From Squalus acanthias (lineage: Eukaryota), in contig CM059431.1 in assembly GCA_030390025.1 (NCBI GenBank), positions 119,290,001 to 119,354,000 of the forward strand: a DNA stretch of 64,000 nucleotides, written 5' to 3'. The position numbers were made by a program, and so were the translations under genes. The notes beneath the pieces were generated by a model, which saw only the letters and a list, made by a program, of their open reading frames with translations, made no database searches and had not been told where the DNA came from. The number at the start of each line of letters is the position of its first letter. Position 1 is the first letter of the stretch. Shown here piece by piece: positions 8,831-45,950 of the stretch.

Positions 8831-9989
8831 ATGGGGGCTGTACTGGCAGTCCCCCTCGCGCTCGAGTATTTTAGGGAGTGGGAGCGGAGGCAGCGAAGAA
8901 GATAAGAGGTGCACAGAGGGAGGAGGAGGAGGGCTATGAGGGCTCTCTACAGGTCTTACCCACCTAGGGTCTTCAGAGAACACTTCCCAGTGTATTAGGA
9001 GGCTCCACTTCACCAAGGAGGTGGTCACAGAACTCTGCCACCTCCTGCAGCCTGAGAGCAGGGCGACCACAGGTCTCCCTGTGGCCCCCAAGGTCACATG
9101 GCCCTTAATTTCTTCGTCAATGGATCCTTCCAATCTGCAACAGGAAACAGCTAACATCTCACAGTTCACCATCCATTGCTGCATCCGGGAGTTCACTGAG
9201 GCTCTATACACCAGGAGAAGACACTACATTTTCTTCTCACTGAGCAGAGAGAAGCAGGATGAGCATGCATGTGGCTTTGCCAGGATAGTGGGCTTCCACA
9301 TGGTGCAGGGCGCTATCGACTGCACCCACGTCGCTTTGCGTGCGCTGCATAACAATCCTGAGATCTTCTGTAACCACAAAGGCTACCACTCACTTAATGT
9401 GCAGTTGGTGAGCGACCACGCCCAGCGCTTCCTGATGGTCAATGACCGCTATCCTGGCAGCAGCCATAGTGCCTTCATCCTGCATCAGTCCAGTGTGCCA
9501 GCAATCTTCCAGCCACCACATGAAACTGGAGGGTGGCTGCTCGGAGACAAGGGCTATCCGCTCTGCACTTGGCTCATGACTCCCCTCTGCAACCTCACCA
9601 CTCGTGCCCAGCACTCATATAATGAGAGCCATGCCTCCACCAGGAACATCATCGAGCAGACCGTCACGCAACTGAAGCAACGGTTCCGCTGCCTTGACCA
9701 CTCAGGAGGAGCCCTCCAGTACTCGGTGGAGTGGGTGTCCCATGTCGGGGTGGTCTGCTGCATGCTTCACAACTTGGTCATCATGAGGGCGCAGACCTTG
9801 CCACCAGGGATTGCAGGACTACCTCAGGAGGAGGACGAGGGAGAGGAGGAGGAGGAGGATGAGGAGGAGAAGGAAGAGGAAGATAGGAAGAGGAAGAGAA
9901 TGAGGAGGATGAGAGGAGGCAGGCATCCAATCTCCCTTCTGGATGGGCTGTCCGTGAATGCCTCATCAGACTCCAATTCCAATGAATGA
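8831..9989 (+). pseudogene. Harbinger DDE transposase (HARBI1-like), frameshifted at the 5' end
   Basis: Motifs VQGAIDCTHV, KGYHSLNVQLV, YPGSSH, WLLGDKGYP, RNIIEQ, LKQRFRCL, plus an acidic C-terminal run. Confidence 0.9.
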
Positions 9990-10139
9990 AACACTTAGAT
10001 CCCCATTGTTCACCACATCCCTCTGTCACGGAATATCACAGCATCCTCCTGGGCACACAGCTGAAATGAGAGCCACCACAAAAGATTCCAAATAAAATGA
10101 ATAAATTTAGCAAAAATCAATTTACACATACGATAACAA

Positions 10140-11530
10140 CTAATCACCCTTGTGCAAACCCTTAGTGCCTGTCGTTCGGCTGCCCTTTCCTGCTCTAGTG
10201 CTCCTACGAAGTGCTCCCCCAGTGGCTGCAGTGTGGCTGGTGAGTTACCATGGGGGAGACTTCAGATGGCCTTGCAGGACGACCTCGAGCAGCATGGGCC
10301 TGGAAGGCTCAGCTAAAGACTGCACCGCTTCCACATGGATGGCAGCAGACTGGGCTGGCTGGCTGACAGGCAGCGACAAAGGCAATGGCAGAGTGGCAGT
10401 GGTGGGAACAGGAATGCTGTCATCCTGAGAGAGAACAGCAAGGTCCTGCTCCACTGACCCACTGCCACTCCCCCGGAACGGCGCCTCAACATCCCTACCG
10501 ATCTGCTGGAGCACTGATTGCCGCGCTGCTGCGACACCCTGCAAGTCCCGGTCAACGGTAGTAATCCCAGCCACAATGGCAGCAGTCTGAGCATGGGTGG
10601 CATCAAGTGGAGACTTCATGAGAGCAATCTGTGCTTCCGCTGCAGCACTAAGACGTAGGGTCACTTCCGCCTGTGCTGCAATGGCAGTTGCGACACCGCC
10701 CAACACACACAGCATCATGTCTGTGTCGAGATGGTCTCTTCAGGAGTTTTCCATCATTTCCAGTCTGGAAATCCTGGGCTCCAAGCTCTGCGCAGAGCCC
10801 CGGCCAATGTTACAGGTGGACTCCTCCACGCTCCTTGACATTGCCAAGAGGCTCTCTGCCAGGCTTGCCATTGCACCTAGCATGCCCATCACCCTTCTTC
10901 TGAAGGCCGCCTCATCGAGGTCCTCATCTGAGTCCTGTGCAGCAGAACTCGTGCGTGAACTCGCCCTCCGGGGAGCTGGCCCCCGAGCTACCCTATCCTC
11001 TGGCCTTGCTGCAGTCCACTCGTGCCCGGTGCCTCATCCTGTGCAGATCCCGCTTCTACACTAGCCTCGAAAGTATGTGCAGTGCCGGTTTCTGAGCTGG
11101 TGTCTGCGAGTGACAGATGCAGTGACGTTGTGTCTTCATCTTCTTCTCCACCCTCGCTCTCCTGCATCGCCTCAGGGACAGGCTGGTCTGGTGCTTGGTC
11201 TTGGTTAGCTGAAAGCAGAAAGGCACAAGAGTCAGGTTATGGTGAGTGGAGGGGGCTGGGGTGAAAGCAAGATCTGCATGCATACAATGTCAGCAGCTTG
11301 AGAGTGAGAAGCGATCGTGGGATGAGGGGGAAGTGGGATGTGAGAAGAGGGATTAGGAATGAGCATATCGTTGTTTTCTCCAAGGGCTCCAACCTCACTG
11401 GTTGTCATGGCCTTTATAATCTGCTGCCCGATGATCTCCAGCACTCGCTCCTTCAGCAGACTAAAGTCCTGGATGGCAGCTTGTCCCCGCCTGTCTGTCA
11501 CTGCTCCCTCCTGTTATGCGTGACCTTGGT
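10140..11530 (-). pseudogene. Harbinger Myb/SANT gene, exons 2-3 remnant
   Basis: Homologous to 1200-2686 (KVTHNRREQ, GSGSGSVEQDLAVLSQDDSIP...PLSLPVSQPAQ). Exon 1 is missing. Confidence 0.75.
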
Positions 11531-29497: not shown

Positions 29498-31630
29498 GAA
29501 GGGGTTGACGGTGGATAGGCAATGGCAAACATTCAAAGACTGCATGGATGAACTACAGAATTTGTTCATCCCAGTGTGGCATAAGAATAAAACAAAAAGG
29601 GTGACTCAACCGTGGCTAACAAGGGAAATTAGGGATAGCATAAGATCCAAAGAGAGGGCATATAAATTGGCCAGAAAAAGCGGTAGCCCTGAGGATTGGG
29701 AGCAGATAAAGATTCAACAAAGGAGGACAAAGGGATTAATTAAGAAGGGGAAAATAGAATATGAAACTAAGCTTGCTGGGAACATAAAAACTGACTGTAA
29801 GAGCTTTTATAGATATGTGAAGAGAAAAAGATTAGTGAAATCAAGTGTAGGTCCCTTGCAGTCAGAAGCGGGGGAAGTTATAATGGGGAACAAAGAAATG
29901 GCAGACCAATTAAATGCATATTTTGGTTCTGTCTTCACAAAGGAGGACACAAATAACCTCCCAGAGATGTTGGAGAACATACGATCTGATGAAAGGGAGG
30001 AACTGAAAGAAATCAGTATTTGCAGGGAAATGGTGTTAGGGAAATTGACGGGATTGAAGGCCGATAAATCCCCAGGGCCTGATAATCTACATCCTAGGGT
30101 ACTTAAGGAAGTGGCCCTAGAAATAATAGATGCATTGCTGATCATCTTCCAACATTCGATGGAATCTGGAACTGTACCCATGGATTGGAGGGTAGCCAAT
30201 GTTACCCCACTATTCAAAAAGGGTAGTAGAGAGAAAGCCTGACATTGGGGAAAATGCTAGAGTTCATTATAAAGGATGTAATAGCTGAGCACTTGAAAAA
30301 CAGTGACAGGATCGGACAAAGTCAACATGGATTTACAAAAGGTAAATCGTGCTTGACTAATCTACTGGAATTTTTTGAGGATGTAACTGGGAAAATAGAT
30401 AAGGGAGAACCAGTAGATGTGGTGTATTTGGACTTTCAAAAGGCTTTCGATAAGGTCCCGCATAAGAGATTAGCGTGTAAAGTTAAGGCGCATGGGATTG
30501 GGGGCAAGGTATTGACTTGGATAGAGAACTGGTTGGCAGACAGAAAGCAGAGAGTAGGAATTAATGGGTCTTTTTCCGAGTGGCAAACAGTGACTAGTGG
30601 GGTACCGCAGGGATCGGTCCTTGGACCCCAGCTATTCATAATATACATTAATGATCTAGATAAGGGAACTAAATGTAATATCTCCAAGTTTGCAGATGAC
30701 ACAAAGCTGGGTGGGAGTGTGTGCTGCGAGGAGGATACCGAGAAACTCCAGGATGATTTGGACAGGTTGGGTGAGTGGGCAGAAGCGTTGCAGATGCAAT
30801 ATAACGTGGATAAGTGCGAGGTCATCCACTTTGGTGGCAAAAACAGAAAGGCAGACTATTATCTGAATGGCAATAGATTGGGAGAAGGGGAAGTGCAACG
30901 AGACCGAGGTGTCCTTGTGCACCAGTCGTTGAAAGTAAGCATGCAGGTGCAGCAGGCGGTGAAGAAGGCAAATGGTATGTTGGCCTTCATAGCGAAAGGG
31001 TTTGAGTATAGGAACAGGGATGTCCTGCTGCAGTTGTACAGGGCCTTGGTGAGACCACACCTTGAGTACTGTGTGCAGTTTTGGTCGCCTTATCTGAGGA
31101 AGGATGTTCTTGCCATGGAAGGAGTTCAGCGAAGATTCACAAGGCTGATACCTGGGATGGCAGGAATGACATATGAGGAGAAATTGGGTCGATTGGGCTT
31201 ATCCTCACTGGAGTATAGAAGAATGAGAGGGGATCTCATCGAAACATATAAAATTCTGACAGGTCTGGACAAACTAGATGCAGGAAGAATGTTCCTGATG
31301 GTCGGAGAGTCCAGAACCAGGGGTCATAATCTAAGGATAACGGGTAAACCATTTCGGACAGAAATGAGGAAGAATTTCTTCACCCAGAGAGTGGTGAACC
31401 TGTGGAATTCTCTACCACAGAAGGTAGTTGAGGCCAAGCCATTAAATATATTCAAGAATGAGTTAGATATATTTCTTAAAGCTAAAGGTATCAAGGGATA
31501 TGGGGAGAAGGCAGGTACAGGGTACTGCGTTTGGATGATCAGCCATGATCTCATCGAATGGCGGAGCAGGCTCGAGGGGCCGAATGGCCTACTCCTGCTC
31601 CTATCTCCTATGCTTCTATGTTTCTATGTT
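29497..31630 (+). mobile_element. CR1 LINE, 5'-truncated ORF2 (RT), small deletion at ~30240
   Basis: [35 protein letters not shown]. Tail (tatgtttc)n. Confidence 0.95.
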
Positions 31631-32045
31631 TCTCATCTCAGTTTTGAAAGAGCAGCCCCTTATTCTAAGAATATGCCCCCTAGTTCTAGTTTTGCCCATC
31701 ATCGGGAACATCCTCCCCGCATCCACCCGATCCAACCCCTTCACAATCTTATATGTTTCAATAAGATCGCCTCTCATTCTTCTGAACTCCAATGAGTAGA
31801 GTCCCAATCTACCCAACCTCTCCTCATATGTCCATCCCCTCATCCCCGGGATTAACCGAGTGAACCTTCTTTGTACTGACTCGAGAGCAAGTATGTATTT
31901 TCTTAAGTATGGACACCAAAACTGTATGCAGTATTCCAGGTGCAGTCTCACCAATACCTTGTACAACTGAAGCAATACATCCCTATTTTTATATTCTATC
32001 CCCCTAGCAATGAAAGCCAACATTCCATTGGCCTTCTTTATCACT
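31631..32045 (-). mobile_element. CR1 ORF2 fragment, tail-to-tail with the preceding copy
   Basis: KKANGMLAFI...LEYC.QFW.P...RRMRGDLIETYKI. Confidence 0.9.
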
Positions 32046-32778: not shown

Positions 32779-33109
32779 TCACCTTTTTGGGCAACATCCT
32801 TAAAATGACTCTCCTCCACTAAGTTGCCAGGGGATTGGACATATAGACATGCACACAAGGCACTAGACTACCAAGAGCTGAAACAAAGTGTACTCACCAT
32901 AAGCCCGACTACTCCCGCTCATCTGCTAAGAAACAAATAGAGTCTACTCACCGCAAGTTGACACATTCCTCCTCTGCTTCACCACAAAGGATTGAGCTTT
33001 AGAGAAAGTCTCCACTTTTTTAAGGGTTTGGTTGGTTATTATGCCAGTGCATTGTATCCCAGCAGAAAACATATTTTGTTTATTTATTAAAAATGTAACT
33101 TCAATGTAT

Positions 33110-34763
33110 TGTAAGGGTCCCGTGTCTCAGACGGTGCCGGTGCGAGGTTAGGCCTTCGTTGCCTAATACTATTGCTTGCTCTGGTCTCCGACCAGCCTTT
33201 TTGTAATAAGCACCTGTGAGTGGTTTGACCCACTCGCCCTTACGGTTCTAACACTGGACTTAGGTGCAGGGAGCAGTAATGCAGAGAAAACTCAAATAGA
33301 CCCGGTTGAATAGTACGAATTGGAAATCTTTATTGCATAGCGTCCAAAATCACGAAGTACATGTCATAGGTGCAAATTAACGAGAGTACAAGTATACATA
33401 CATTCATAAAGCTTGGTCTATGGAAATGAAGAACGCACGGCACATCGTAAAAAGGGGAACACATTATACTTTAACCTTAATAAAACCACCCTCCCTTAAC
33501 AATACCTACACTACGTCTAGATTTGTAGGATCGTAAAACATGCTCACCACTCGTGTTACTTCGGAGAATTTTAAAGTGAGGCACTCAGCTCGTTTCGCTG
33601 CAGCGCCTGACTGTCACGTGTTTGGAAGGGTCTCTGTACCCCACTTGTTTATTTTCGCTGCTGCGACAAGCAGGCCAGACTCCCTGTTGTCATGAAGAAC
33701 TCGACGGACCTCGGACACAGTTCAAAGAAGAGTCTTCCTGTGCTCGACACCGGTTGTCGGTAGATTTCAATGAAGAGTTCTTTATTATATTTTCGGGCGC
33801 GGTCGGGGTTTACTGACCGTGGCGGCACGTGAATTCTTCTTCTTTTCTTGTCGTCTCGTCTCGTCTCTTCGGGCCTCCGGGTCCAGACACCGTTTACCGA
33901 CACTCGGGATGGTGTACCCTGTTACTTGCCCTTGTCGGGGCGGCTCGTTCCGATTGAGCTCCACCCAACATTCGAATAACCGACCAGTACGGCTAAAAGT
34001 CAAGAGTCAACAAAGTCCAGAGAAACACAGAAGGCTGCTCGTCCAGCAGAGCGATGCTCGAGGTTAAGAATAAGAGAATAAGAGTTCAGCAGTCAGCAGC
34101 GAGATAAGAGAGTCAAGAGACCGATGGACATTTGTTCACTATAGTTATAGTGCTGTGTCTGCTTATCTCCCACCAAAATCTTAATGTTTGTCTTTTGTGT
34201 AATATTGGCGCTCAAAACTCCCAGCATGGGGCGATTCTTCTCTTTAACGGGTTTCGGTAGCACCTCAAACTGGCCAACTACCAGTTAATGTTTTCCCCAT
34301 TGTTGACCCAGCCAGGATTGTATGAATCGTCTCCCTGACTGGTTTTGGGGGCCCCCGAATACTTGCTTAATCACCCGTCGATGTCTCTCTCATTGTAGAG
34401 CCGGGGGGGTATTTGTGTATTGATGTGTCTGGATGGGCCTTCGATTGCCCAGTACAATGGTCCTTACTTGTGCATGGAAAACGATTCCAGCACTTATATC
34501 TTTGCTATTGTTCCAAATGCAAACGGGTTGCATCCTGTCTTTATCAGTGTTTATCGAGTATGATCCAATCTTATATTGAATGTTTATTCGACGACATCTT
34601 GTCTGCCCACTGTATTTCTGGAAGCTTCTGCCACGATGCGCAGCGGCCATTTTACAGGCTTCTGCGTCCTGTATATCATGACAGCATTTTGTTTAATAAA
34701 ACTGATCAAACAAATCTGCTTCTCTCTAGTTATTTCGAATCGCGATAATAGCGAAACTTTACA
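33110..34763 (-). repeat. 3' LTR of the pol-less element
   Basis: Plus strand tgtaagggtcc...aaactttaca. Roughly 97-98% identical by eye to 40624-42270. Candidate minus-strand CCAAT at ~34204-34208, TATAA at ~34145-34149 and AATAAA at 33329-33334. Confidence 0.95.
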
Positions 34764-34775
34764 GTCCCTCCTGTT
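34764..34775 (-). promoter_or_regulatory. Polypurine tract
   Basis: Minus strand AACAGGAGGGAC immediately precedes the TG of the 3' LTR. Confidence 0.7.
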
Positions 34776-35159
34776 GATGCGAATAACTCCGCTTATCGTA
34801 ACAATTAAAAATGGTGGTGAGCAAAATTATCCCGATTCTCCACATCCAAACACTCCCGGTACTGAAACTATCTATGGCCTCCATGCAGTCCTAATTTCCC
34901 AGGGAAATTACATTGTCTAAACTTGGACAAATCGTAGGCAGCATTGACTTTAAACTTACACTGCGTATACGCCTTCCAGGTGCAAAAGGCCGATGCCTCT
35001 CGCACCACCTGCATATGCATGTTTTATTATAAAAGGAAAAATAATCAAAACAACCATTTTTAAAAAAATACAAAGTTCCAAACTTAGTTACACATACTCA
35101 TAACTAATAACAATTACAAAAACACACATGGTAAAATGGAGCGGCGTCATCCTGGCCGT

Positions 35160-37508
35160 TTACGCGGTACTTTCCTCGTTCACGTGCACGTAACGTTCTC
35201 TCCACTCCCCTGTGTTCTCCTGCTTTGTGAGGCGTTTGCCTCTTTTGCAGTGTACGACCAATAGGTACACTACAATCACGACTTGACACACTACCAAAAT
35301 GTGGGAGGCTATCCTGATCCATGACGGAACTTCAATATTAGTGAACAGGTCCCACCACGGTGGGTCTACTATGTCTAGTATCTCTGTCCCTATCTCTACA
35401 GTATTTTGTTCCAGGGTGTAAAAAATTTTTGTGATACCATGACGGCTTTTAAAATCTTGGTGAGGTGTTCAAGGAGAGGGGGAATGATGTATCCGAAATG
35501 CGACGAATCGCTGCAAGTCTGTGAAATTCTCTTTTACTGTGAGGTGAACAGTGGATGGTTCAGGGATCGGGACAATTCGCTGTTGTGCCACTTGAACTTC
35601 AGCCCTGGGTTTAAAACAGAAACTGCTGTCACTCACCGGACACCGGCTGTGCTGTCCATGCTGGTAGTGTTGCGCTGCAGTGGTAACGCAATACATTCCA
35701 CCCCCTATGTATGCCACCTGTGGGGGCACATGATCTTGTGTCATTGCTTCCATGGTGCAATTCATGGGCTTCGCGCCAGCCGTTCTGAACCCGCATTGTG
35801 GTGTTAAAAAGGCATTCAAGTGCTGGGGACACAGTATGATGTGTGCTCCCCGGCCACAACAACCCGATAGGTCGGTACCTGTCATTGTTTGCTACCAGCG
35901 GATGATGTAAGGTGGGACCGCTGCGTAGCGAATGTGGGCTCCCCCCTGAATGACACCAATGTTCTCCACCCGATACACCGGGGCGGGCTTTGCTGTGTCG
36001 CCCAACACCGGCATACGTAGTACTATACCCATGATGGTATGGTTTGACTGTCCGCAGTCCATGGGGACTGGGTATGCCTCTGAGGCTAGCCTGAGCTGGC
36101 ACGGGCTTAATGCGTTCTGAAAAGGGTGGAGCGCCTGCAGGTGTTTGTTACTTATCCAGGACGGGACCAAACCTTGTTTTAAATCCTCCAAATTACTGCG
36201 GCCCTCGCCCAGTAACCACGCCCCGTATAGTACGCACACCTCGTTCTGTGCAGCTTGATCGGATGCATTCCGATCTTCCCTGATCAGGGCATTTACCGTT
36301 CTCGCATGCTTCTCCAGCTCTGCTATAATCTCTTTTAAGTGTAGTGTCATGGCCTGATCCTCATGTAACTCAGACCCTACTACCTTGTTTTCGCTTGTGA
36401 GGATGCTTTTTAACTGTGTTTTTAAACCGTTGATCTGGGTCTGCAGCTCCACGTTGTCTAGAGCGTTGACCACAGATGTTCCCGTATTAAAAGCAGTGAA
36501 CACATCATTCACAACACCCCTTCTTTGTCTCCCCACCTGACCCAAAACTTCGTGTGGTGCGGTGTACAAGCTTGTTTTGTCAATCTCTGCAAAATCAAAC
36601 TCGTAGAATTGTCTGAACATGTTTGTTAACAGGACCTGGTACAATTGTTCCGTTTCTTTGGGACACCACTCTGGTAAACGCACCTCGGTGAGATTTAGAA
36701 TCACTGAGGCCACCGCGTAATGTACCCCTTGATATAGTATCTGGTCTGTTGGCACCAGTACCAGACCATTCCCGGGCCCCTTAGTGGTTTTAGGGCACCC
36801 TTCTTCCTGAGCCAAAGCCACCGGAATCGTGGGCGGAGACTTGCGTGGGCGTGTGATGAGTTCAGTGGCGTTTACCGGGATCGGGGAGAATGGAGCTCCG
36901 CACCCCTTTGTGCTGACATCCCACCTCATCCCTTTCCCGTTATCCTGCCACTGGTGTACGAAAAATATGGATATACCCTTGTGGCAAACGTACTTCGATC
37001 CCCACATACAAACATATATTCCCTCATCCGGTTCCCACCATTTGTCCCAACAGACTTTCAATTGTCCGTTAGTCCCCGTAATTGTCCGATGGGTATTGTT
37101 ACCCAATCGCTCCCACTCGACCGAGGAATTTCTCATAGTCTTGCTTAACTTCCGTAACCACCACCATCGGCTCAATGGGACCTTCCCATTGCATGTCAAA
37201 CAAATCCTTTTGCCGACGGTGACGCTGATTCTGGGTGCAATGATCCTCACTCTGGGGCACAGCAAAGAAGTCTCTTTGTAGGCAAATCCGGATGCTCTGG
37301 AGTATTCCGTCGAATTCGTTCCCAGCCATCCCAGCCACCTTCCCTTATGGAAATAAGTGGCGGTTTCCTCAGCCTCTTGCTCCCCGGTCCCATCCGTCGC
37401 GATGGGGCCCGTGTCCCCGGAGCAACCGAACACAACGACATCCTTGGTGAGGCCCCGATAGGCCAATCCATATCCGATCGTTGCGAGCACTATCAGAATC
37501 CTTTCCAT
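35160..37508 (-). pseudogene. env: Envelope glycoprotein (~782 codons): signal peptide, Ig domain, class I fusion (F-like) ectodomain, TM, cytoplasmic tail; disrupted
   Basis: Hydrophobic N-terminus MERILIVLATIGYGLA; Ig motif C106...W117...DEGIYVC167; furin site RQRR|GVVNDVFTAF followed by a heptad helix. In-frame TAG at 35892-35894, then a Cys-rich region and a second lesion at ~35420-35500. The frame continues to ...WIRIASHILVVCQVVIVVYLLVVHCKRGKR...STA with TAA at 35160-35162. Confidence 0.85.
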
Positions 37509-37520
37509 CTTTCCTGGTTC

Positions 37521-37545
37521 CTGTGATCAGATAAAATGATGTAGC
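37521..37545 (-). promoter_or_regulatory. Putative env splice acceptor
   Basis: Minus strand ...catcattttatctgatcacAG|gaaccaggaaagATG. The AG is 12 nt upstream of the env ATG. Confidence 0.6.
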
Positions 37546-37779
37546 CAGCCTCCCAAGAGTCTCTGGCTTTTTGTGAAGGGTGAGCGGGTCCCTTGACCTT
37601 GTCTCACGTATAACGACATGTATGCTGGATAGACTTTAACTATTCCTATCACTAACTCCCATCACTTTACCATTTACTTTAAAAATTAAACTACAATCTT
37701 ACCAAACTAAAAAAAACTATAAACTTAAACTTATCCTAAACTTAACTGTACAGCGCCGCCCGTTCCCAGGGCGGCCTAC

Positions 37780-38796
37780 CTAAATTCTGCGAAGGCTGCC
37801 ACGTGCTTTTCCCAGTGGCGGGGGGGCACTGACCCCTTCCTTTGATCTGCCGCAGCCTGTCGTCGCTGCGCTGGGACTGGGATCTCCCTGGGCTGCCTTG
37901 AACTTACGCCTGGGGGTGTACGAGGGATTTGACCACAACTTCCTGGGCTGGGGTGTCCGACTTGACCTACGGAGGGCTACCTTGGGCAAGATTTCCAGGA
38001 CCGACGGACCGGGAACCGAGACTTCCACCGTCACGGCCTGTGGTCCCACCACAGCTGCCGGCTCTGTCTCCCCTGGCTCCGCCCCCCTGGGCTCGGGATC
38101 TGCGGTTTCCGACTCCACCTTACTTGCTTCCCCAGTAAGTGGAACTCCACTCGCAATCCCTATCTCCCCTATGCTTGGGTCGAGGGCGGAACCTCCGTCC
38201 TCCGACCCCACCACCTCTCCGACCGGGTCACTACCTTGGTTGAGCTCTCCGAGCTCTTCCTCATCTGAATCCCATGACCAAGAAAAGATCCTACACTTTT
38301 CCAAAATGTCTTCTCCCCTCACGCAAGCTGCTTTACCGGCCTGTGTGCCCTGCGGTTCTACCCGGGGCTGAGAGTCCCCACTCGCAGGTCTGGCCCCTCC
38401 CCTAATACAGGCCACCGCCCCTGCTTGTGCATTCTGTGTAATCTCGCCTGCTGGAGGCTGAAGATTTCTATTCTGTTTTAGTTTGGGCAACTCTGCTACC
38501 ATGGCTTGCAACTGCGGGGTGGTGAATTCCCCCGGGGTTGTTGAGCAAACCATCCCTCTGGCTTTGGATAGGGCTTGGGTCAGACCTTTTATCCTTTCCT
38601 CACAGGGCCCATGGTTTAAAACCTCATACTCCCTGCTCCTGGCTACCATGTAGGCTGCCTTTATGTCTCTAAACTGCCCTTCTAGCCCATCTACTTTCCC
38701 CATTAAACGGGCGTTCTCCTCCCGCAAGGCCTGCTCTTTTAACCTGGCCTCCTTACAGGAGGCCCCCTCCTGTGTGTGTCTTTCAAGGGGACACAT
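37780..38796 (-). CDS. ORF2 (338 aa): truncated Gag paralog (coiled coil + first capsid-like helix) with an acidic/Pro-rich then basic tail; in frame with gag
   Basis: aa16-84 align without gaps to Gag aa122-190 (24/69 identical). QLQAMVAELPKL resembles Gag QLRAMINHVRKL. The ORF is uninterrupted. Confidence 0.75.
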   Translation of the reverse strand: MCPLERHTQEGASCKEARLKEQALREENARLMGKVDGLEGQFRDIKAAYMVARSREYEVLNHGPCEERIKGLTQALSKARGMVCSTTPGEFTTPQLQAMVAELPKLKQNRNLQPPAGEITQNAQAGAVACIRGGARPASGDSQPRVEPQGTQAGKAACVRGEDILEKCRIFSWSWDSDEEELGELNQGSDPVGEVVGSEDGGSALDPSIGEIGIASGVPLTGEASKVESETADPEPRGAEPGETEPAAVVGPQAVTVEVSVPGPSVLEILPKVALRRSSRTPQPRKLWSNPSYTPRRKFKAAQGDPSPSAATTGCGRSKEGVSAPPPLGKARGSLRRI

Positions 38797-38820
38797 GTAG
38801 GCAGGCTGCGCTAGTTCCAG

Positions 38821-40551
38821 TCAGAAGTCTGGGTTGTATGGGGCTGTTGCTACCTTCCCGTGTGAGGTCATAAGAGACCGCATGGCTCCTAACATCGACT
38901 CGATCGCGTCGGGATGGATAGGCACACCAGCTCCTCTCTCAGAGACAGGCGTTTGGGCTCGGACTGTGCGAGCTTTGTCCCTGGAGTCCTTCCAGGGATT
39001 CCTGTAGTTTTTACGCCAGTGACCTGTCTTCCCACACCCGTAACAAACACCACTGGTTTGTGGGGCGCGATTTCCCTCCTGATGCCACTCTTTCTGAGCC
39101 GGAGCTGCAGGCTTTGCTTCATGCACCTTTCCCTTAAGGGGACGCGCTCCCGTGCTCCTAGTGTTCCGATACCCTATGGTGAGTCGATTTAGGACAGACT
39201 CCTCCGTTGTGGCGGCGTTAGTGGGATCAAACCATGCTCTGGCCTGCTCCCTGATGGCTGGCAAGCTGTTGGCTACTAGACACCTGAGCCAATGAGCTTT
39301 CCCGGCGCCGTTAAGATAGGCGCGCGCTGGCGCACCTGGGCAGCTACGCTGGTAGACTGGCCACAGCCCGTCGGCGAAAACCTTCGGGGGTTCTCCCTCC
39401 ATCTTTATGGTTTGACTCAATCTGACGAACGGACCTTCGTCATCCGCCCCTAAAACTTCTAGGACCTCGTCCCGTAACTCCTCATAGGTTTTATTTCCCT
39501 TCTTGCTCTCGTCTGAGAGACACTGAAGGATCGAGCTATCTAACGAGAACAGCAACATTTTGGTCTTTTCCTCATCGTCGCAGCCATTAATTGCTGCGGT
39601 CTGTTCTACTTCCCTAAAATGTACGGAAGGGTCGTCTGACTCGGACAGTTTCCGTACATGGTTAATCATTGCTCTCAGCTGGTGTGAGCTGTGGGGCAAT
39701 ACAAGCTGGTTCAGGACATCCCCGTCATCCCCATTGGCTGCATTCGGGCCTCTCTTGTGACCTCGGAGCGGACACATCGGTCCCGGTCCCGACTCTACCT
39801 CCAGGGACTGTCCTACCTGGGGCACCTCCTTCTCTATTTCCACCACTTCCTCCCTTACCCAGGTTGCCGAATAGCTGGGTGGCGCGGAGGGCACAGTGGC
39901 AAATACCTCTTCTGCTTTGTCTGGTAGGGATTTTGGGAATTCCCTACCCACCTGTGGCTGGTTTGCTGACGGGCTGATGAGGCACACCAAGCCGTTTGCC
40001 TTATTCAGGGCCTCTCTTAGGTTCCCTATCTCCTTCTGGCAAACACTGTGGTCGGCTCCCTCATGCCTATCCTCGAGGGCCATCTTGTATGTCGCCCTAA
40101 CTCCCTTCAAGCTTTCTTCCTGGGCTTTTATCTGGTTAGCAAGGCGGACACACCGTTCTCTAATCCTACCCTCGTTTAATTTCGCTTCCGTGACCTGACA
40201 TTCTAAGTAATCAATTTTAGCCTCATGGTGGTTGGCTACTATTTGGCGTTCCTGATGTAATGCATTAAATGATACAATGAGTTTTTGTCCTCCCGTGATC
40301 TTTTCCTCCATCTCAACTTCCAGTTCCCTGATCTGAGCTGCCTGTGCCACAATGACCTGGTCCGAAAGTTGGACTTGCTTCTTGTAGCACATCAGCCAGT
40401 CCGCTTTCTCTACCGACTTCTTATGCTCTTTACTGCCTGTCCATTTGATGGCGGCGTCTAGCGGACGCTTATCCATCAGTAGGTCACTTATCCACCTTTT
40501 GGTTAAGTTAACCTTCCCAAACACATCGTCAGCTACCCTCTGATCCATCAC
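38821..40551 (-). CDS. gag: Gag-like protein (576 aa)
   Basis: First ORF after the PBS. N-terminal coiled coil, PSAPPSY late domain, helical capsid-like region (DPSVHFREVEQTAAINGC.., EGEPPKVFADGL), and zinc knuckle CYGCGKTGHWRKNY with the last C replaced by Y (TAC). Confidence 0.88.
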   Translation of the reverse strand: MMDQRVADDVFGKVNLTKRWISDLLMDKRPLDAAIKWTGSKEHKKSVEKADWLMCYKKQVQLSDQVIVAQAAQIRELEVEMEEKITGGQKLIVSFNALHQERQIVANHHEAKIDYLECQVTEAKLNEGRIRERCVRLANQIKAQEESLKGVRATYKMALEDRHEGADHSVCQKEIGNLREALNKANGLVCLISPSANQPQVGREFPKSLPDKAEEVFATVPSAPPSYSATWVREEVVEIEKEVPQVGQSLEVESGPGPMCPLRGHKRGPNAANGDDGDVLNQLVLPHSSHQLRAMINHVRKLSESDDPSVHFREVEQTAAINGCDDEEKTKMLLFSLDSSILQCLSDESKKGNKTYEELRDEVLEVLGADDEGPFVRLSQTIKMEGEPPKVFADGLWPVYQRSCPGAPARAYLNGAGKAHWLRCLVANSLPAIREQARAWFDPTNAATTEESVLNRLTIGYRNTRSTGARPLKGKVHEAKPAAPAQKEWHQEGNRAPQTSGVCYGCGKTGHWRKNYRNPWKDSRDKARTVRAQTPVSERGAGVPIHPDAIESMLGAMRSLMTSHGKVATAPYNPDF

Positions 40552-40600
40552 ATTTCGCCTATTGAAACCAGGTCTAAAACATTACTCTCCTGCTGCCAAT

Positions 40601-40618
40601 GTCCTGCTGCGGTCGCCA
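40601..40618 (-). promoter_or_regulatory. Primer-binding site, tRNA-Arg
   Basis: Minus strand TGGCGACCGCAGCAGGAC, 5 nt after the 5' LTR. From memory it matches 17/18 the complement of the vertebrate tRNA-Arg(TCG) 3' end (TGGCGACCGCGGCAGGAC). Confidence 0.8.
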
Positions 40619-40623
40619 TTTTC

Positions 40624-42270
40624 TGTAAGGGTCCCGTGTCTCAGACGGTGCCGGTGCGAGGTTAGGCCTTCGTTGCCTAATACTATTGCTTGCTCTGGTC
40701 TCCGACCAGCCTTTTTGCAATAAGCACCTGTGAGTGGTTCGACCACTCGCCCTTACGGTTCTAACACTGGACTTCGGTGCAGGGAGCAGTAATGCAGAGA
40801 AAACTCAAATAGACCCGGTTGAATAGTACGAATTGGAAATCTTTATTGCATAGCATCCAAGATCATGAGTACATGTCATAGGCGCAAATTAACGAGAGTA
40901 CAAGTATACATACATTCATAAAGCTTGGTCTATGGAAATGAAGAACGCACGGCACATTGTAAAAAGGGGAACACATTATACTTTAACCTTAATAAAACCA
41001 CCCTCCCTTAACAATACCTACACTACATCTAGATTTGTAGGATTCGAAAACATGCTCACCACTCGTGTTACTTCGGAGAATTTTAAAGTGAGGCACTCAG
41101 CTCGTTTCGCTGCAGCGCCTGACTGTCACGTGTTTGGAAGGGTCTCTGTACCCCACTTGTTTATTTTCGCTGCTGCGACAAGCAGGCCAGACTCCCTGTT
41201 GTCATGAAGAACTCGACGGACCTCGGACACAGTTCAAAGAAGAGTCTTCCTGTGCTCGACACCGGTTGTCGGTAGATTTCAATGAAGAGTTCTTTATTAT
41301 ATTTTCGGGCGCGGTCGGGGTTTACTGACTGTGGCGGCACGTGAATTCTTCTTCTTTTCTTGTCGTCTCGTCTCGTCTCTTCGGGCCTCCGGGTCCAGAC
41401 ACCGTTTACCGACACTCGGGATGGTGCACCCGGTCACTTGCCCTTGTCGGGGCGGCTCGTTCCGATTGAGCTCCACCCAACATTCGAATAACCGACCAGT
41501 ACGGCTAAAAGTCAAGAGTCAACAAAGTCCAGAGAAACACAGAAGGCTGCTCGTCCAGCAGAGCGATGCTCGAGGTTAAGAATAAGAGTTCAGCAGTTAG
41601 CAGCGAGATAAGAGAGTCAAGAGACCAATGGACATTTGCTCACTATAGTTATAGTGCTGTGTCCGCTTATCTCCCACCCAAATCTTAATGTTTGTCTTTT
41701 GTGTAATATTGGCGCTCAAAACTCCCAGCATGGGGCGATTCTTCTCTTTAACGGGTTTCGGTAGCACCTCAAACTGGCCAACTACCAGTTAATGTTTTCC
41801 CCATTGTTGACCCAGCCAGGATTGTATGAATCGTCTCCCTGACTGGTTTTGGGGGCCCCCGAATACTTGCTTAATCACCCGTCAATGTCTCTCTCATTGT
41901 AAAGCCGGGGGGGGGCATTTGTGTATTGATGTGTCTGGATGGGCCTTCGATTGCCCAGTACAATGGTCCTTACTTGTGCATGGAAAACGATTCCAGCACT
42001 TATATCTTTGCTATTGTTCCAAATGCAAATGGGTTGCATCCTGTCTTTATCAGTGTTTATCGAGTATGATCCAATCTTATATTGAATGTTTATTCGACGA
42101 CATCTTGTCTGCCCACTGTATTTCTGGAAGCTTCTGCCACGATGCGCGGCAGCCATTTTACAGGCTTCTGCGTCCTTTATAATCATGACAGCATTTCGTT
42201 TAATAAAACTGATCAAACAAATCTGCTTCTCTCTAGTTATTTCGAATCGCGATAATTGCGAAACTTTACG
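40624..42270 (-). repeat. 5' LTR of the pol-less element
   Basis: Plus strand tgtaagggtccc...aaactttacg (terminal CA mutated to CG), followed by the TSD GTAT. Confidence 0.95.
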
Positions 42271-43599
42271 GTATTGCAATGACTTTAATAACACTGCCAA
42301 ATCACTCATGTACTGCCCCATTTGCCATGGAGCAGACAACAGGGTTGGGAAAATGGCAGGACAAACATCCTGTTATCCTGTTTGTTGGCACCCTCTGCTG
42401 TTTAGATTATCGAGACTGATGAAAATAGGCTTATTTGGCTAACTGGATGAATTCAGATCTGCAACTTCTAAATTGCTCATTTCTGGTGTACTGTGAATCA
42501 CACAGTTAGAGGGGGAGGGTGGGGGTGTGGAGATTTCCATTGATCACTATGTGTAACAAAAACTGTGAACCTATTTTCTCTAAAGAGGTTTATAATTTTG
42601 TTACCAGTAATGCGCAGAGGAAATGTTTCCCCAATGTTGGGATGCTGTTACCTTGGTAACTGCATATATTATTCCAGATTGATATCATGCTTGTTCTAAA
42701 CCCAGCAACTTTATGAAGTGTGACAGCCCTTAAAGTAAATAACTTACAGTTAACTATAATGTAGGTTTCTGCGTTATGACGAATAGCTACTGGTACCTTT
42801 TTGTGAGTCCGTTCATATTTGTTTGTGCTGTATATTCAAAACTCATTACTAAAAACTCATGACGACGGATATATATATTTTTTTAAATGGATTAAGTGGT
42901 TCTAATCAGCGTTGCATCTTATTGATGTGTGAGATTCCCTGTTGACTATTATGCAGCTTCAGGCAAGAGTAGAAAAGTAATTAGATATAATATGTACTGA
43001 CAGTAGGGAGATATGTCTACGCTTGCCAGATCCTTTCCCTTATTACCACACATAAGCTAGATAGAGGCAGCCTGAGAACAGATCTTTAATGCAGAGTTCT
43101 TCCTGTTCTGGCATCATAAAGTTATGCTCCAATGATATTTTGAGTGGGAACAGAAGATGATTTCTCATTAATGATGCTGGAGCTAAATTCAATTTCATAT
43201 TGGTCATTAAATGCATTCAAATGGTGTTGTGTAGTGAAAATCTAAACTACAGTATCTGCATTGTAATGCATTCTACTAGAGCAATGGCATATCCTTTGTA
43301 CTGGAGATCCTTTATCTTTATGTTTTGCTACATAACTAAAGAATACAAAATTGAGCAATGGTGGGATATAACGCTTATTCTATGAGTGAGGAATACCTTC
43401 TCCACGTTTGTCAGTTACCAACGTTAAAGATTATTTTTTCAACAATTGGTACAACTTAACCTGTTAAAGCTAAAATTTTAACACGCTCAAGAAAAAAATA
43501 AAAAGCAAAATATCACTGCAACCTCAGACTACCATGAAATCAGAAAAAATACTTTAAAGGGTAAACTTTGCTTCTGGTATGGAGACTGGCTTGATGGAA

Positions 43600-45950
43600 A
43601 CACAGCATTACCATCGCCGAATCCCCCACCATCAACATCCTGGGGCTCACCATTGACCAGAAACTTAACTGGACCAGCCACATAAATACTGTGGCAACAA
43701 GAGCAGGTCAGAGGCTAGGTATTCTGCGGCGAGTGTCTCACCTCCTGACTCCCCAAAGCCTTTCTACCATCTACAAGGCACAAGTAAGGAGTGTGATGGA
43801 ATACTCTCCACTTGCCTGGATGAGTGTAGCTCCAACAACACTCAAGAAGCTCGACACCATCCAGGACAAAGCAGCCCGCTTGATTGGTGTAAGGGGGACG
43901 TGTCTCAGACGGTGCTGGTGCGAGGTTAGGCCTTCGTTGCCTATACTATTGCTTGCTCTGGTCTCCGGCCAGCCTTTTTGCAATAAGCACCTGTGAGTGG
44001 TTCGACCCACTCGCCCTTACGGTTCTAACACCTGGACTTAGATGCAAGGGTAAGTAATGCAGAGAAAACTCAAATAGACCCGGTTGAATAGCACGAAATG
44101 AAAATCTTTATTGCATGGCGTCTAAAATCATGAAATACATGTAATAGACGCAAATCAAAGAGAGTACAAGTATACACACGTTCATAAAGCTTGGTCTATG
44201 GAAATGGAGAACACACGGCACATCGTAAAAAGTGGAACACATTATACCTTAACCTTATAAAAAACCACCCTCCCTTAACAATACCTAAACTACATCTGGA
44301 TTTGTAGGATCGGAAATCATGCTCACCACTCGGCTTACTTCGGAGATTTTAAAGTGAGGCACTCAGCTCGTTTCGCTGCAGCGCCTGACTGTCACGTGTT
44401 TGGAAGGGTTTCTGCACCCCACTTGTTTACTTTCGCTGCTGCGACAAGCAGGCCAGACTCCCTGTTGTCATGAAGCAGTCGATGGACTCAAGCCATCTTA
44501 GAATTCAAAGAAGGATCTTCCTGTGTTGCAGTACATGTAGAAGTCGGTAGAACTCAAAGGAAAGTTCTTTTAGTTATATTTTCGGGCAGTGGTCGGGGTT
44601 TACTGACCGTGGCGGCACGTGGAATTTCTTCTCGTCTTCTTCTCTTCTCGTCTCCTCGGGCCTCCGGGTCCAGATACCGTTTACCGACACTCGGGATGGT
44701 GTGCCCTGTTACTTGCCCTTGTCGAGGCGGCTCGTTCCGATTGAGCTCCACCCAACACTCGAATAACCGACCAGTACGGCTAAAAGTCAAGAGTCAACAG
44801 AGTCCAGAGAATCAAATGACCAAAAGTCCAGCCCCAAGGAACAGCTTCAGCAAGGGTCACCAGAGAGATAAGAGTTCAGCAAGTGAATAAGAGAGTGATG
44901 GACATTTGTCCTCTATAGCTATACTGTTGTGTCCGCTTTATCTCCCGCTCAAATCTAAATGTTTATCCTTTGTGTGATTTTGGCGCTTAAAACTCCCAGC
45001 ATGGGGCGATTATCTTCTTAACGGGTTTTGGTAGCACTTGAAACTGGCCAACTATCTGTTAATGTTTTCCCCATTGTAGAGCCAGCCAGGATGTGTATGA
45101 ATCGTCTCCTCGACTGGTTTTGGGGCCCCCCGAATACTGGCTTAATCACCCGCCAATGTCTCTCTCATTGTTGAGCCGGGGGGGTATTTGTGTATTGATG
45201 TGTCTGGATGGGCCTTCGATTGCCCAGTTCAATGATCCTTACTGTGCATAGGAAAACGATTCCAGCACTTATATCATTGCTATTGTTTAGAATGCAAACG
45301 GGTTGCATCCTGTCTTTATCAATGTGTACCGAGTATGATCCAATCTCATACTGAATGTATATTCGACGCCATCTTGTCTGCCCACTGTATCTCTGGAAGC
45401 TTCTGCCACGATGCGCGGCGGCCATTTGGCAGTCTTCTGTGTCCTTTAATATTAGAACAGCATTTCGTTTAATAAAAATGATCAATTGAATCTGCTTCTC
45501 TCATGTTATTTTGAATCGCGATAATTGCGAAACTCTACAGTAGCACCCCCTCTACCACCTTAAACATTCACTCACTCCACCACCGGTGTAACGTGGCTGC
45601 AGTGTGTACCATCTATAAAATGCACTGCAGCAACTTGCCAAGGCTTCTTCGGCAGCACCTCCTAAACCCGCGACCTCTTCCATCTAGAAGGACAAGGGCA
45701 GCAGACTTATGGGAACACCACCACCTCCAAGTTCCCCTCCAAGTCACACATCATTCTGACTTAGAAGTATATCGCTGATCCTTCATCGTCGCTGGGTCCA
45801 AATCCTGGAACTCCCTCCCTAACAGCACTGTGGAAATACCTTCACCACACAGACTGCAGCGGTTCAAGAAGGCGGCTCACCACCACCTTCTCAAGGGCAA
45901 TTAGGGATGGGCAATAAAGGCTGGCCTTGCCAGCGATGCTCACATCCCAT
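43600..45950 (+). mobile_element. Non-LTR LINE 3' fragment (CR1/L2 group) split by the solo LTR
   Basis: ORF2 C-terminus (AGQRLGILRR...IYKAQVRSVMEYSPLAW...IQDKAARLIG) stops at 43887 and resumes at ~45544 (TPSTTLNIHSLHHR...) into the 3'UTR. Confidence 0.85.
43888..45539 (-). mobile_element. Solo LTR of the same family as 33110-42270, older subfamily
   Basis: tgtaagggggacgtgtctcag...aaactctaca, colinear with the proviral LTRs but visibly more diverged. The 4-bp flanks TTGG / GTAG look like a decayed TSD. Confidence 0.92.

Follow-up and report, generated by a model that had tools for sequence, protein, structure and literature searches.

A probably sibling-dependent, pol-deleted endogenous retrovirus subfamily of Squalus acanthias that retains gag and an env with a predicted paramyxovirus F-like fold

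We analysed a 64,000-nucleotide stretch of the Squalus acanthias genome (NCBI GenBank assembly GCA_030390025.1, contig CM059431.1, positions 119,290,001 to 119,354,000 of the forward strand), which we call the window and number from its first letter. Positions 33110–42270 of the window hold, on the minus strand, a retrovirus-like element of 9161 bp, in which two long terminal repeats (LTRs) of about 1.65 kb enclose gag, a second open reading frame (ORF2) and env (Table 1). A preliminary description of the window had named both LTRs, a GTAT target-site duplication, a primer binding site (PBS) for an arginine tRNA, a polypurine tract (PPT) and the three reading frames, all of which we confirm on the minus strand. 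The two LTRs are 1.63% diverged, with 27 mismatches and 7 gap openings in an alignment of 1657 bases, and the 5′ LTR starts with CG where the 3′ LTR and the other copies described below start with TG. The 3′ end of tRNA-Arg(TCG), with CCA added, complements the PBS at 18 of 18 bases; this identity comes from a search with the PBS-complement pattern, which occurs at two genomic places, one of them at the 3′ end of a gene that ARAGORN identifies as tRNA-Arg(TCG). The PBS is visible in 12 copies, 11 of which read ...CCGCGGC... and differ from the window copy by the same single letter. These copies may have been primed by another Arg isodecoder, or the PBS of the window copy may have back-mutated. 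The PPT, AACAGGAGGGAC, is identical in all 16 copies in which the boundary of the 3′ LTR was located. For Gag, a word-based search returned one homologue, from a skate, at 59% identity, and the ESM Atlas places the protein with retrotransposon Gag and zinc-knuckle clusters at 0.92, which we take as a lead and no more.

The element belongs to a family that exists in two forms. Searching the 3.7-Gb genome with the interior of the window element returned seven other full-length, collinear matches at 92–96% identity and many further matches that begin only inside ORF2. At all six loci read upstream of such partial matches, the 5′ LTR and gag are those of the window element and lead into about 3.7 kb that it does not have. 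This segment lies in one frame behind the gag stop and encodes RVP, RVT_1, RT_RNaseH_2, RNase_H, Integrase_H2C2 and rve domains (Pfam). The order in these pol-bearing siblings is LTR, Arg PBS, gag, TGA, in-frame pol (protease (PR), reverse transcriptase (RT), tether, RNase H, integrase (IN) and a long tail), F-like env and LTR. Three pol-bearing proviruses read from end to end measure 12.2–12.6 kb and all are flanked by a perfect 4-bp duplication. Siblings and pol-less copies share the same LTR, PBS and PPT. The element is not a member of a self-contained family, as the preliminary description had proposed: relatives with the same LTR, Arg PBS, gag and env, plus PR, RT, RNase H and IN, reside in the same genome. 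Beyond the integrase, the Pol of the siblings continues into a tail of about 270 amino acids (9496–10299 of locus L005, and the corresponding stretch in the remaining pol-bearing loci) that is acidic, rich in proline and of low complexity, with no intervening stop in five of six copies. Relative to the pol-less copies, this tail contains a tandem duplication of about 190 bases, and its ratio of nonsynonymous to synonymous substitution rates (dN/dS) is 0.64, with no detectable constraint.

No enzymatic part of pol is left in the window element. A Pfam search of its three reading frames found no PR, RT, RNase H or IN, blastn with the siblings' pol DNA matched nothing in it, and tblastn with the siblings' Pol (1224 aa) aligned with it over the first 12 codons only (E = 0.17), which upholds the absence of these enzymes noted earlier. 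ORF2, which had been read as an intact, different reading frame in the place of pol with no deletion scar, occupies the same frame as gag, after its stop, and spans 346 codons from stop to stop (338 aa from its ATG), with a gap of 250 bases before env. It is made up of the first 12 codons of Pol, an insert, and the tail of Pol, the last forming its C-terminal two thirds. Pol-less copies track the siblings across the gag stop and the 12 Pol codons, though already diverged there, and rejoin them in the Pol tail at AGGGGCCA.ACCTGCGAG. By this composition, ORF2 is what remains of pol, with a captured fragment in it, and represents the scar of a deletion.

The insert itself resembles gag. A 73-aa stretch of it is 34% identical to gag residues 121–193 (E = 8e-12) and, by BLASTP, also 34% identical to the same region of the skate Gag (E = 2e-9), no closer than to the element's own gag; being equally distant from the two, it is a piece of a distantly related gag rather than a recent self-copy. 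A genome search with the insert gave only pol-less copies and no donor, and the clusters returned by the ESM Atlas, at 0.90–0.92, all lack a name. Of the earlier suggestion that ORF2 is a gag paralogue, the gag-like stretch therefore stands, and the independent gene does not: ORF2 is in the frame of Pol and is not detectably constrained. If ORF2 is translated at all, its position in the frame of Pol suggests that the product would be a read-through fusion to Gag.

Table 1. Features of the pol-less element and its target site in the window
Feature	Position in window	Strand	Remarks
Target-site duplication, upstream copy	42271..42274	-	element strand ATAC; plus strand GTAT
5′ LTR, 1647 bp	40624..42270	-	starts CG, ends CA
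Primer binding site TGGCGACCGCAGCAGGAC	40601..40618	-	five bases past the 5′ LTR
gag, 575 aa and TGA stop	38821..40548	-	coding 40548..38824; N-terminal coiled-coil-like part, CCHC knuckle
First 12 codons of Pol (start of ORF2)	38785..38820	-	in the gag frame, past a single stop
Insert specific to the pol-less form, 129 codons	38398..38784	-	about 390 bases, without counterpart in the pol-bearing siblings
C-terminal tail of Pol (rest of ORF2)	37780..38397	-	region after the integrase in the siblings; ends TAG
env, 782 codons and stop	35160..37508	-	ATG at 37508, to 35163
F-like part of env (predicted)	35366..36776, approximate	-	matches residues 245–715 of the intact sibling Env
RQRR site before a hydrophobic stretch	36519..36530	-	RQRR in 15 of 16 copies, RRRR in one
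Predicted Env membrane anchor	35253..35312	-	hydrophobic stretch judged by eye
Polypurine tract AACAGGAGGGAC	34764..34775	-	directly abuts the 3′ LTR
3′ LTR, 1654 bp	33110..34763	-	TG...CA
Target-site duplication, downstream copy	33106..33109	-	ATAC on the element strand

The pol-less layout is recurrent. We examined 14 pol-less copies, the window copy and 13 others, and both junctions, from Pol start to insert and from insert to Pol tail, are identical in all of them. Thirteen have two LTR regions, and in 11 both ends could be located; nine of these 11 are flanked by perfect 4-bp duplications at different sites, and the copies L018 and L022 have the common tetramer CTCC within different flanks. 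Counted with one invariant 26-mer per form, allowing up to two mismatches, the insert occurs at 295 genomic places and pol at 443, with zero matches to the reversed controls. The shared junctions, the roughly 295 places and the separate duplications argue that these elements integrated in the pol-less form with enzymes supplied from elsewhere, as the preliminary description had proposed, and not that the window holds a one-off. The two forms are of similar age: the LTRs of a copy differ by 0.7–2.8% in 13 pol-less copies and by 0.9–1.8% in three pol-bearing ones. For the window copy, a divergence of 1.63% (t = d/2u) corresponds to about 4 million years at a mammalian substitution rate and about 37 million years at the ten-fold lower rate assumed for the elephant shark, both rates being taken from PMC4422223 and that of Squalus possibly differing from either.

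In our view, the window element very likely belongs, as a decayed copy, to a recombinant subfamily that has lost pol and is non-autonomous, within an endogenous retrovirus (ERV) family that is abundant in this genome. In a single ancestor, some 3.7 kb of pol would have been lost and about 390 bases of distantly related gag-like sequence put in, most likely through template switching during reverse transcription, with the LTRs, PBS, PPT, gag and env retained. The resulting 9.1-kb genome could still be transcribed and would still encode Gag and Env, but, having no PR, RT or IN of its own, would integrate only with the enzymes of a pol-bearing sibling in the same cell. If the two genomes were packaged together, the sharing of particles would also explain recombination between the two forms. 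Dependence on a helper, which had been suggested from the window alone, is in this way well supported by the anatomy of the element, by the pattern of its copies and by the pol-bearing siblings, from which we infer a supply of Pol in trans.

Signs of selection are confined to gag and env. Pooled over pairs of pol-less copies, dN/dS is 0.31 for gag (91 pairs) and 0.24 for env (78 pairs), indicating purifying selection in both, and 0.56 for the insert and 0.69 for the tail; with the reading frame shifted, it rises to 0.96–1.28 for gag and env and to 0.72–1.00 for the two parts of ORF2. We also separated variable sites shared by at least two copies, which predate the insertions, from singletons. 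The ratio of nonsynonymous to synonymous changes in gag is 79/89 (0.89) at shared sites versus 149/82 (1.82) at singletons (Fisher p = 0.0007), and in env 52/65 versus 120/104 (p = 0.11), all far under the wrong-frame ratios of 2.6–5.0. The corresponding counts for the insert (5/4 shared, 31/11 singleton) and the tail (43/15 shared, 56/28 singleton) are close to their wrong-frame controls. Together, these patterns indicate that gag and env were constrained while the lineages replicated and that ORF2 was not detectably so. Among the 14 pol-less copies, gag is open in six, ORF2 in eight, env in two and all three in one, roughly as predicted from length alone.

Pol-less and pol-bearing copies do not separate in trees of gag and env, where the pol-bearing copies sit nested among the pol-less ones. 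In one case a pol-less and a pol-bearing copy are sisters (support 0.94), and in another four pol-bearing copies fall into one group with the window copy (support 0.92). A separate clade (support 1.0) is made up of six pol-less copies, and dN/dS within it is 0.32 for gag and 0.29 for env. The mixed trees, combined with identical junctions, point to recombination between the forms rather than to repeated deletion of pol. The insert has a mean diversity of 2.8%, compared with 6.9% for gag, and few shared variants, a pattern consistent with a single, fairly recent origin and a subsequent burst.

Other explanations account less well for these data. The proposal that the pol-less elements make up a self-standing satellite family, an evolutionary line of its own with ORF2 as a functional gag paralogue in the pol slot, seems improbable to us, even though ORF2 is open in more than half of the copies (8/14), its 73-aa stretch resembles residues 121–193 of gag and the skate Gag, and the six-copy clade is exclusively pol-less among the copies sampled. 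ORF2 is composed of the Pol start, the insert and the Pol tail, its variants look neutral, and only the window copy has its ATG, with CTG at that place in the remaining 13 pol-less copies; moreover, LTR, gag and env are shared with the pol-bearing siblings, and trees do not keep the two forms apart. As for a deletion of pol at the window locus after a full-length provirus had integrated there, nothing beyond the missing pol speaks for it, and the identical junctions and insert in 13 other copies, and at about 295 places in all, refute it.

Duplication of host DNA, segmental or tandem, as the main route by which the pol-less copies multiplied is a very remote prospect. Nine of 11 copies are each framed by a separate perfect 4-bp duplication and by unrelated flanks, the copies examined lie on eight contigs, and the LTR pairs are 0.7–2.8% apart within a copy where gag differs by 2.7–13.7% between copies. 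What would agree with it is that two of the 11 copies with both ends located (L008 and L011) have no matching duplication, and that nine matches to the pol-less 26-mer, all on the minus strand, fall within 4.6 Mb of contig C6 (55.18–59.81 Mb). Given this cluster, part of the count of 295 may stem from such duplication.

These last two observations weigh against the reading of a sibling-dependent, pol-deleted subfamily as well, and others join them. The 3′ end could not be located in two further pol-less copies, and the copy numbers hang on a single 26-mer per form. Mobilization in trans is deduced from anatomy and copy pattern, and in each of the three complete pol-bearing copies that were examined at least one of gag, pol and env is not open. 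Only three to six pol-bearing copies were sampled for the trees. As gag and env recombine with those of the helpers, the selection seen in them is not creditable to the pol-less lineage alone. Finally, folding of the 89 nt after the gag stop gave no significant signal of RNA structure (z = −1.3 for the pol-less and +1.0 for the pol-bearing form), so that the reading frame is all that suggests Gag read-through. Of nine sequencing runs listed, none is on record as RNA and eight bear that label by guess; contigs from four runs cover the interior of the element, including the insert, and show no joint between leader and env, which is uninformative on expression.

The second subject of interest is the envelope. 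For the Env of an intact sibling (783 aa), a search of 1.84 billion representative proteins yielded 46 homologues at E ≤ 0.001, only from sharks, a skate and frogs. Sequence comparison did not connect this group to a known family: Env had no significant match in Pfam and none to F0 (PF00523) at E up to 10, and a profile of 18 homologues found nothing below E = 0.2 among PDB sequences, a weak match to Baculo_F (Pfam, E = 0.0011) being seen in one partial homologue. An AlphaFold model built on 18 sequences has a predicted local distance difference test score (pLDDT) of 55 overall and of 70–88 over most of residues 236–650. The top Foldseek matches of this model are the F proteins of paramyxoviruses and pneumoviruses, including that of human parainfluenza virus 3 (E = 4.8e-12, template modelling score 0.54 on the target). 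With VIA-align, residues 245–715 of the model returned Z scores of 13.5–9.5, and all 50 entries listed are F proteins; examples are Z = 13.1 with a root-mean-square deviation of 5.8 over 333 residues and Z = 11.9 with 5.2 over 292 of 323. On the strength of the model, Env is predicted to fold like paramyxovirus F. The RQRR motif, which we take to be a furin-type site, precedes a hydrophobic stretch.

The preliminary description had spoken of an Ig-F env, and the F part of that name is borne out by fold in both Foldseek and VIA-align. For the Ig part there are weak hints only. The first 235 residues are poorly modelled, and a separate model of the N terminus is all-beta, with a pLDDT of 39. For a putative domain at residues ~90–170, the Pfam Ig_3 scores are weak (E = 0.23–0.46), only one of 14 relatives reaching E = 0.0085, and a pattern C...W...DxGxYxC, presumably Ig-like, is visible by eye. 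One shark homologue of Env is labelled ‘Ig-like domain-containing’ by its source. Several shark gene models with host-protein annotations (Niban-like, zinc-finger, cadherin and F-box; proteins P0003, P0004, P0011 and P0034) also include parts of the same Env family and are most likely chimeric models that have taken in ERV insertions.

The siblings' polymerase places the family among retroviruses in a limited way. Compared with solved structures, the RT-RNase H region of the siblings is closest to that of xenotropic murine leukaemia virus-related virus and murine leukaemia virus (XMRV/MLV, E = 5e-70), followed by foamy virus PR-RT (2.6e-63) and Ty3 (3.9e-56), and the closest solved structure to their IN is prototype foamy virus (PFV) integrase (E = 6e-17). 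Outside cartilaginous fish, the nearest proteins are those of frogs and coelacanth, at 43–45% identity, followed by class-I-like ERVs and Gypsy elements at about 30%. We built a quick maximum-likelihood tree from 35 RT-RNase H rows picked from 120 listed matches and rooted it on eight Gypsy rows; its references comprise one representative of the lokiretroviruses, while foamy, class II and class III sequences are absent. That representative, P0074, was recognized by eye as near-identical to a consensus in the supplement of PMC7947760. In this tree P0074 branches first. The family and its relatives from frogs and coelacanth form a group (support 93) whose sister is a clade of class-I-like ERVs (99), and the node uniting these two has a support of 97 (SH-aLRT).

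A placement of the family with the lokiretroviruses, with which the preliminary description had linked F-like envelopes in vertebrates, is not supported by RT: the branching of the tree, with its single loki representative, and the motifs both disagree with it. The siblings have LPQGFHNSP and QYVDDLLL where the loki consensus, in the available part of Wang and Han (Mol Biol Evol 2020, PMC7947760), has PFGY[AS]NSP and IYVDDI, and in the part of its supplement that was searched the motifs of this family occur 0 times and the loki motifs 12 to 15 times. The two groups do share the order LTR-gag-pol-env, a tether and RNase H, and an Env resembling paramyxovirus and pneumovirus F (same source, as far as available), and relatives of both are found in frogs and coelacanth; the Env of the present family, however, has no match to PF00523. 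A table in the available part of the same paper, its columns interpreted through the figure legend, gives three genomes of Orectolobiformes (Chondrichthyes) screened and 0 with lokiretroviruses. In sum, the family is probably not a lokiretrovirus, and it is not shown to be foamy-like.

The family resembles foamy viruses in the F-like fold of Env, in PFV as the best match of IN and in foamy PR-RT as the second-best match of RT, both among solved structures. The fusion subunit of foamy virus Env is itself F-like, according to the available part of a recent study (Sci Adv 2024, PMC11468914); no foamy Env chain is among the fold matches listed here, which does not exclude one. The family differs from foamy viruses in that none of the foamy Gag and Env families of Pfam matches it and in that pol lies in frame behind gag. 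It also differs in its Arg PBS, where Lys is usual in class III and foamy-like ERVs, and in an RT site reading YVDDLLL rather than the YIDD(I/V)F of foamy-like fish ERVs (both comparisons from the accessible part of PMC5210030).

Another close published analogue is BHIKHARI of zebrafish (Bik-1 and Bik-2; bioRxiv 10.1101/2024.03.25.586437), known to us from part of that preprint. Like the pol-less form described here, it has long LTRs, is non-autonomous and pol-less and occurs in many copies, and in both an N-terminal coiled coil precedes the capsid part of Gag. Compared by description, BHIKHARI has gag only, whereas the present element adds env and a pol remnant with a gag-like insert. BHIKHARI is called lokiretrovirus-related in the part of the preprint at hand, and the sibling RT here falls outside the sole loki-like sequence in our tree.

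Our literature searches found no description of an ERV with an F-type env in cartilaginous fish, nor of a pol-less ERV subfamily that keeps both gag and env. Deleted ERV subfamilies that are copied by complementation in trans are familiar from ETn, which relies on MusD, and from deleted forms of HERV-H, and defective retroviruses in general need a helper. The well-known non-autonomous ERVs of high copy number usually lack env or all coding capacity. The present element resembles the ETn and HERV-H types in being a deletion derivative that retains LTR, PBS and PPT and multiplies, as we suppose, with the enzymes of a relative; it differs in having dropped only pol, with gag and env kept and showing signs of purifying selection. 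Non-autonomous ERVs copied in trans are thus already known, and the loss of pol alone, at high copy number and with a constrained gag and F-type env, is an unusual variant of them. The family itself may be an undescribed lineage.

What makes this variant informative is that it has lost only pol and has nevertheless reached about 300 copies, or some two for every three pol-bearing copies by the single markers. It offers a natural case for asking which functions of a retrovirus have to be supplied in cis, and whether a germ line can harbour a defective genome as a lasting parasite of its helper. An F-fold envelope combined with an RT outside the lokiretroviruses, within the limits of our tree, also bears on the origin of retroviral envelopes. 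A bolder combination of claims is that the pol-less form is a true satellite retrovirus, with its own capsid and envelope genes retained by selection for infectious spread to new cells in addition to re-insertion inside a cell, and that the family is an undescribed deep retroviral lineage; we hold this combination to be doubtful. If true, the satellite would be a parasite of its helper, trading gag and env with it by recombination. The lineage would span sharks, rays, coelacanth and frogs, would stand outside lokiretroviruses and foamy viruses, and would possess an F-type Env with an extra N-terminal, possibly Ig-like, domain. F-type Env would then occur in three basal retroviral groups and would be favoured as the ancestral retroviral envelope.

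The window copy, for its part, is a dead, ordinary insertion. Measured against four copies with an open env frame, its env has a nonsense codon at 35892–35894 and two deletions, of two bases after 35503 and of one base after 35425, with a stop in the out-of-frame stretch between them. The last Cys of the CCHC zinc knuckle in gag is replaced by Tyr in this copy only (one of 17 copies).

Two further features lie near the element on the minus strand. The first, at 43888–45541 and 1.6 kb from the element, is another LTR of this family, 86–87% identical to the element's LTRs and with no adjoining internal sequence; its flanks, CTAC and CCAA, form no clean duplication, and it is probably an older solo LTR. 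On the other side, at 31616–32023, an open reading frame of 135 aa looks by eye like the C-terminal part of the reverse transcriptase of a long interspersed nuclear element.

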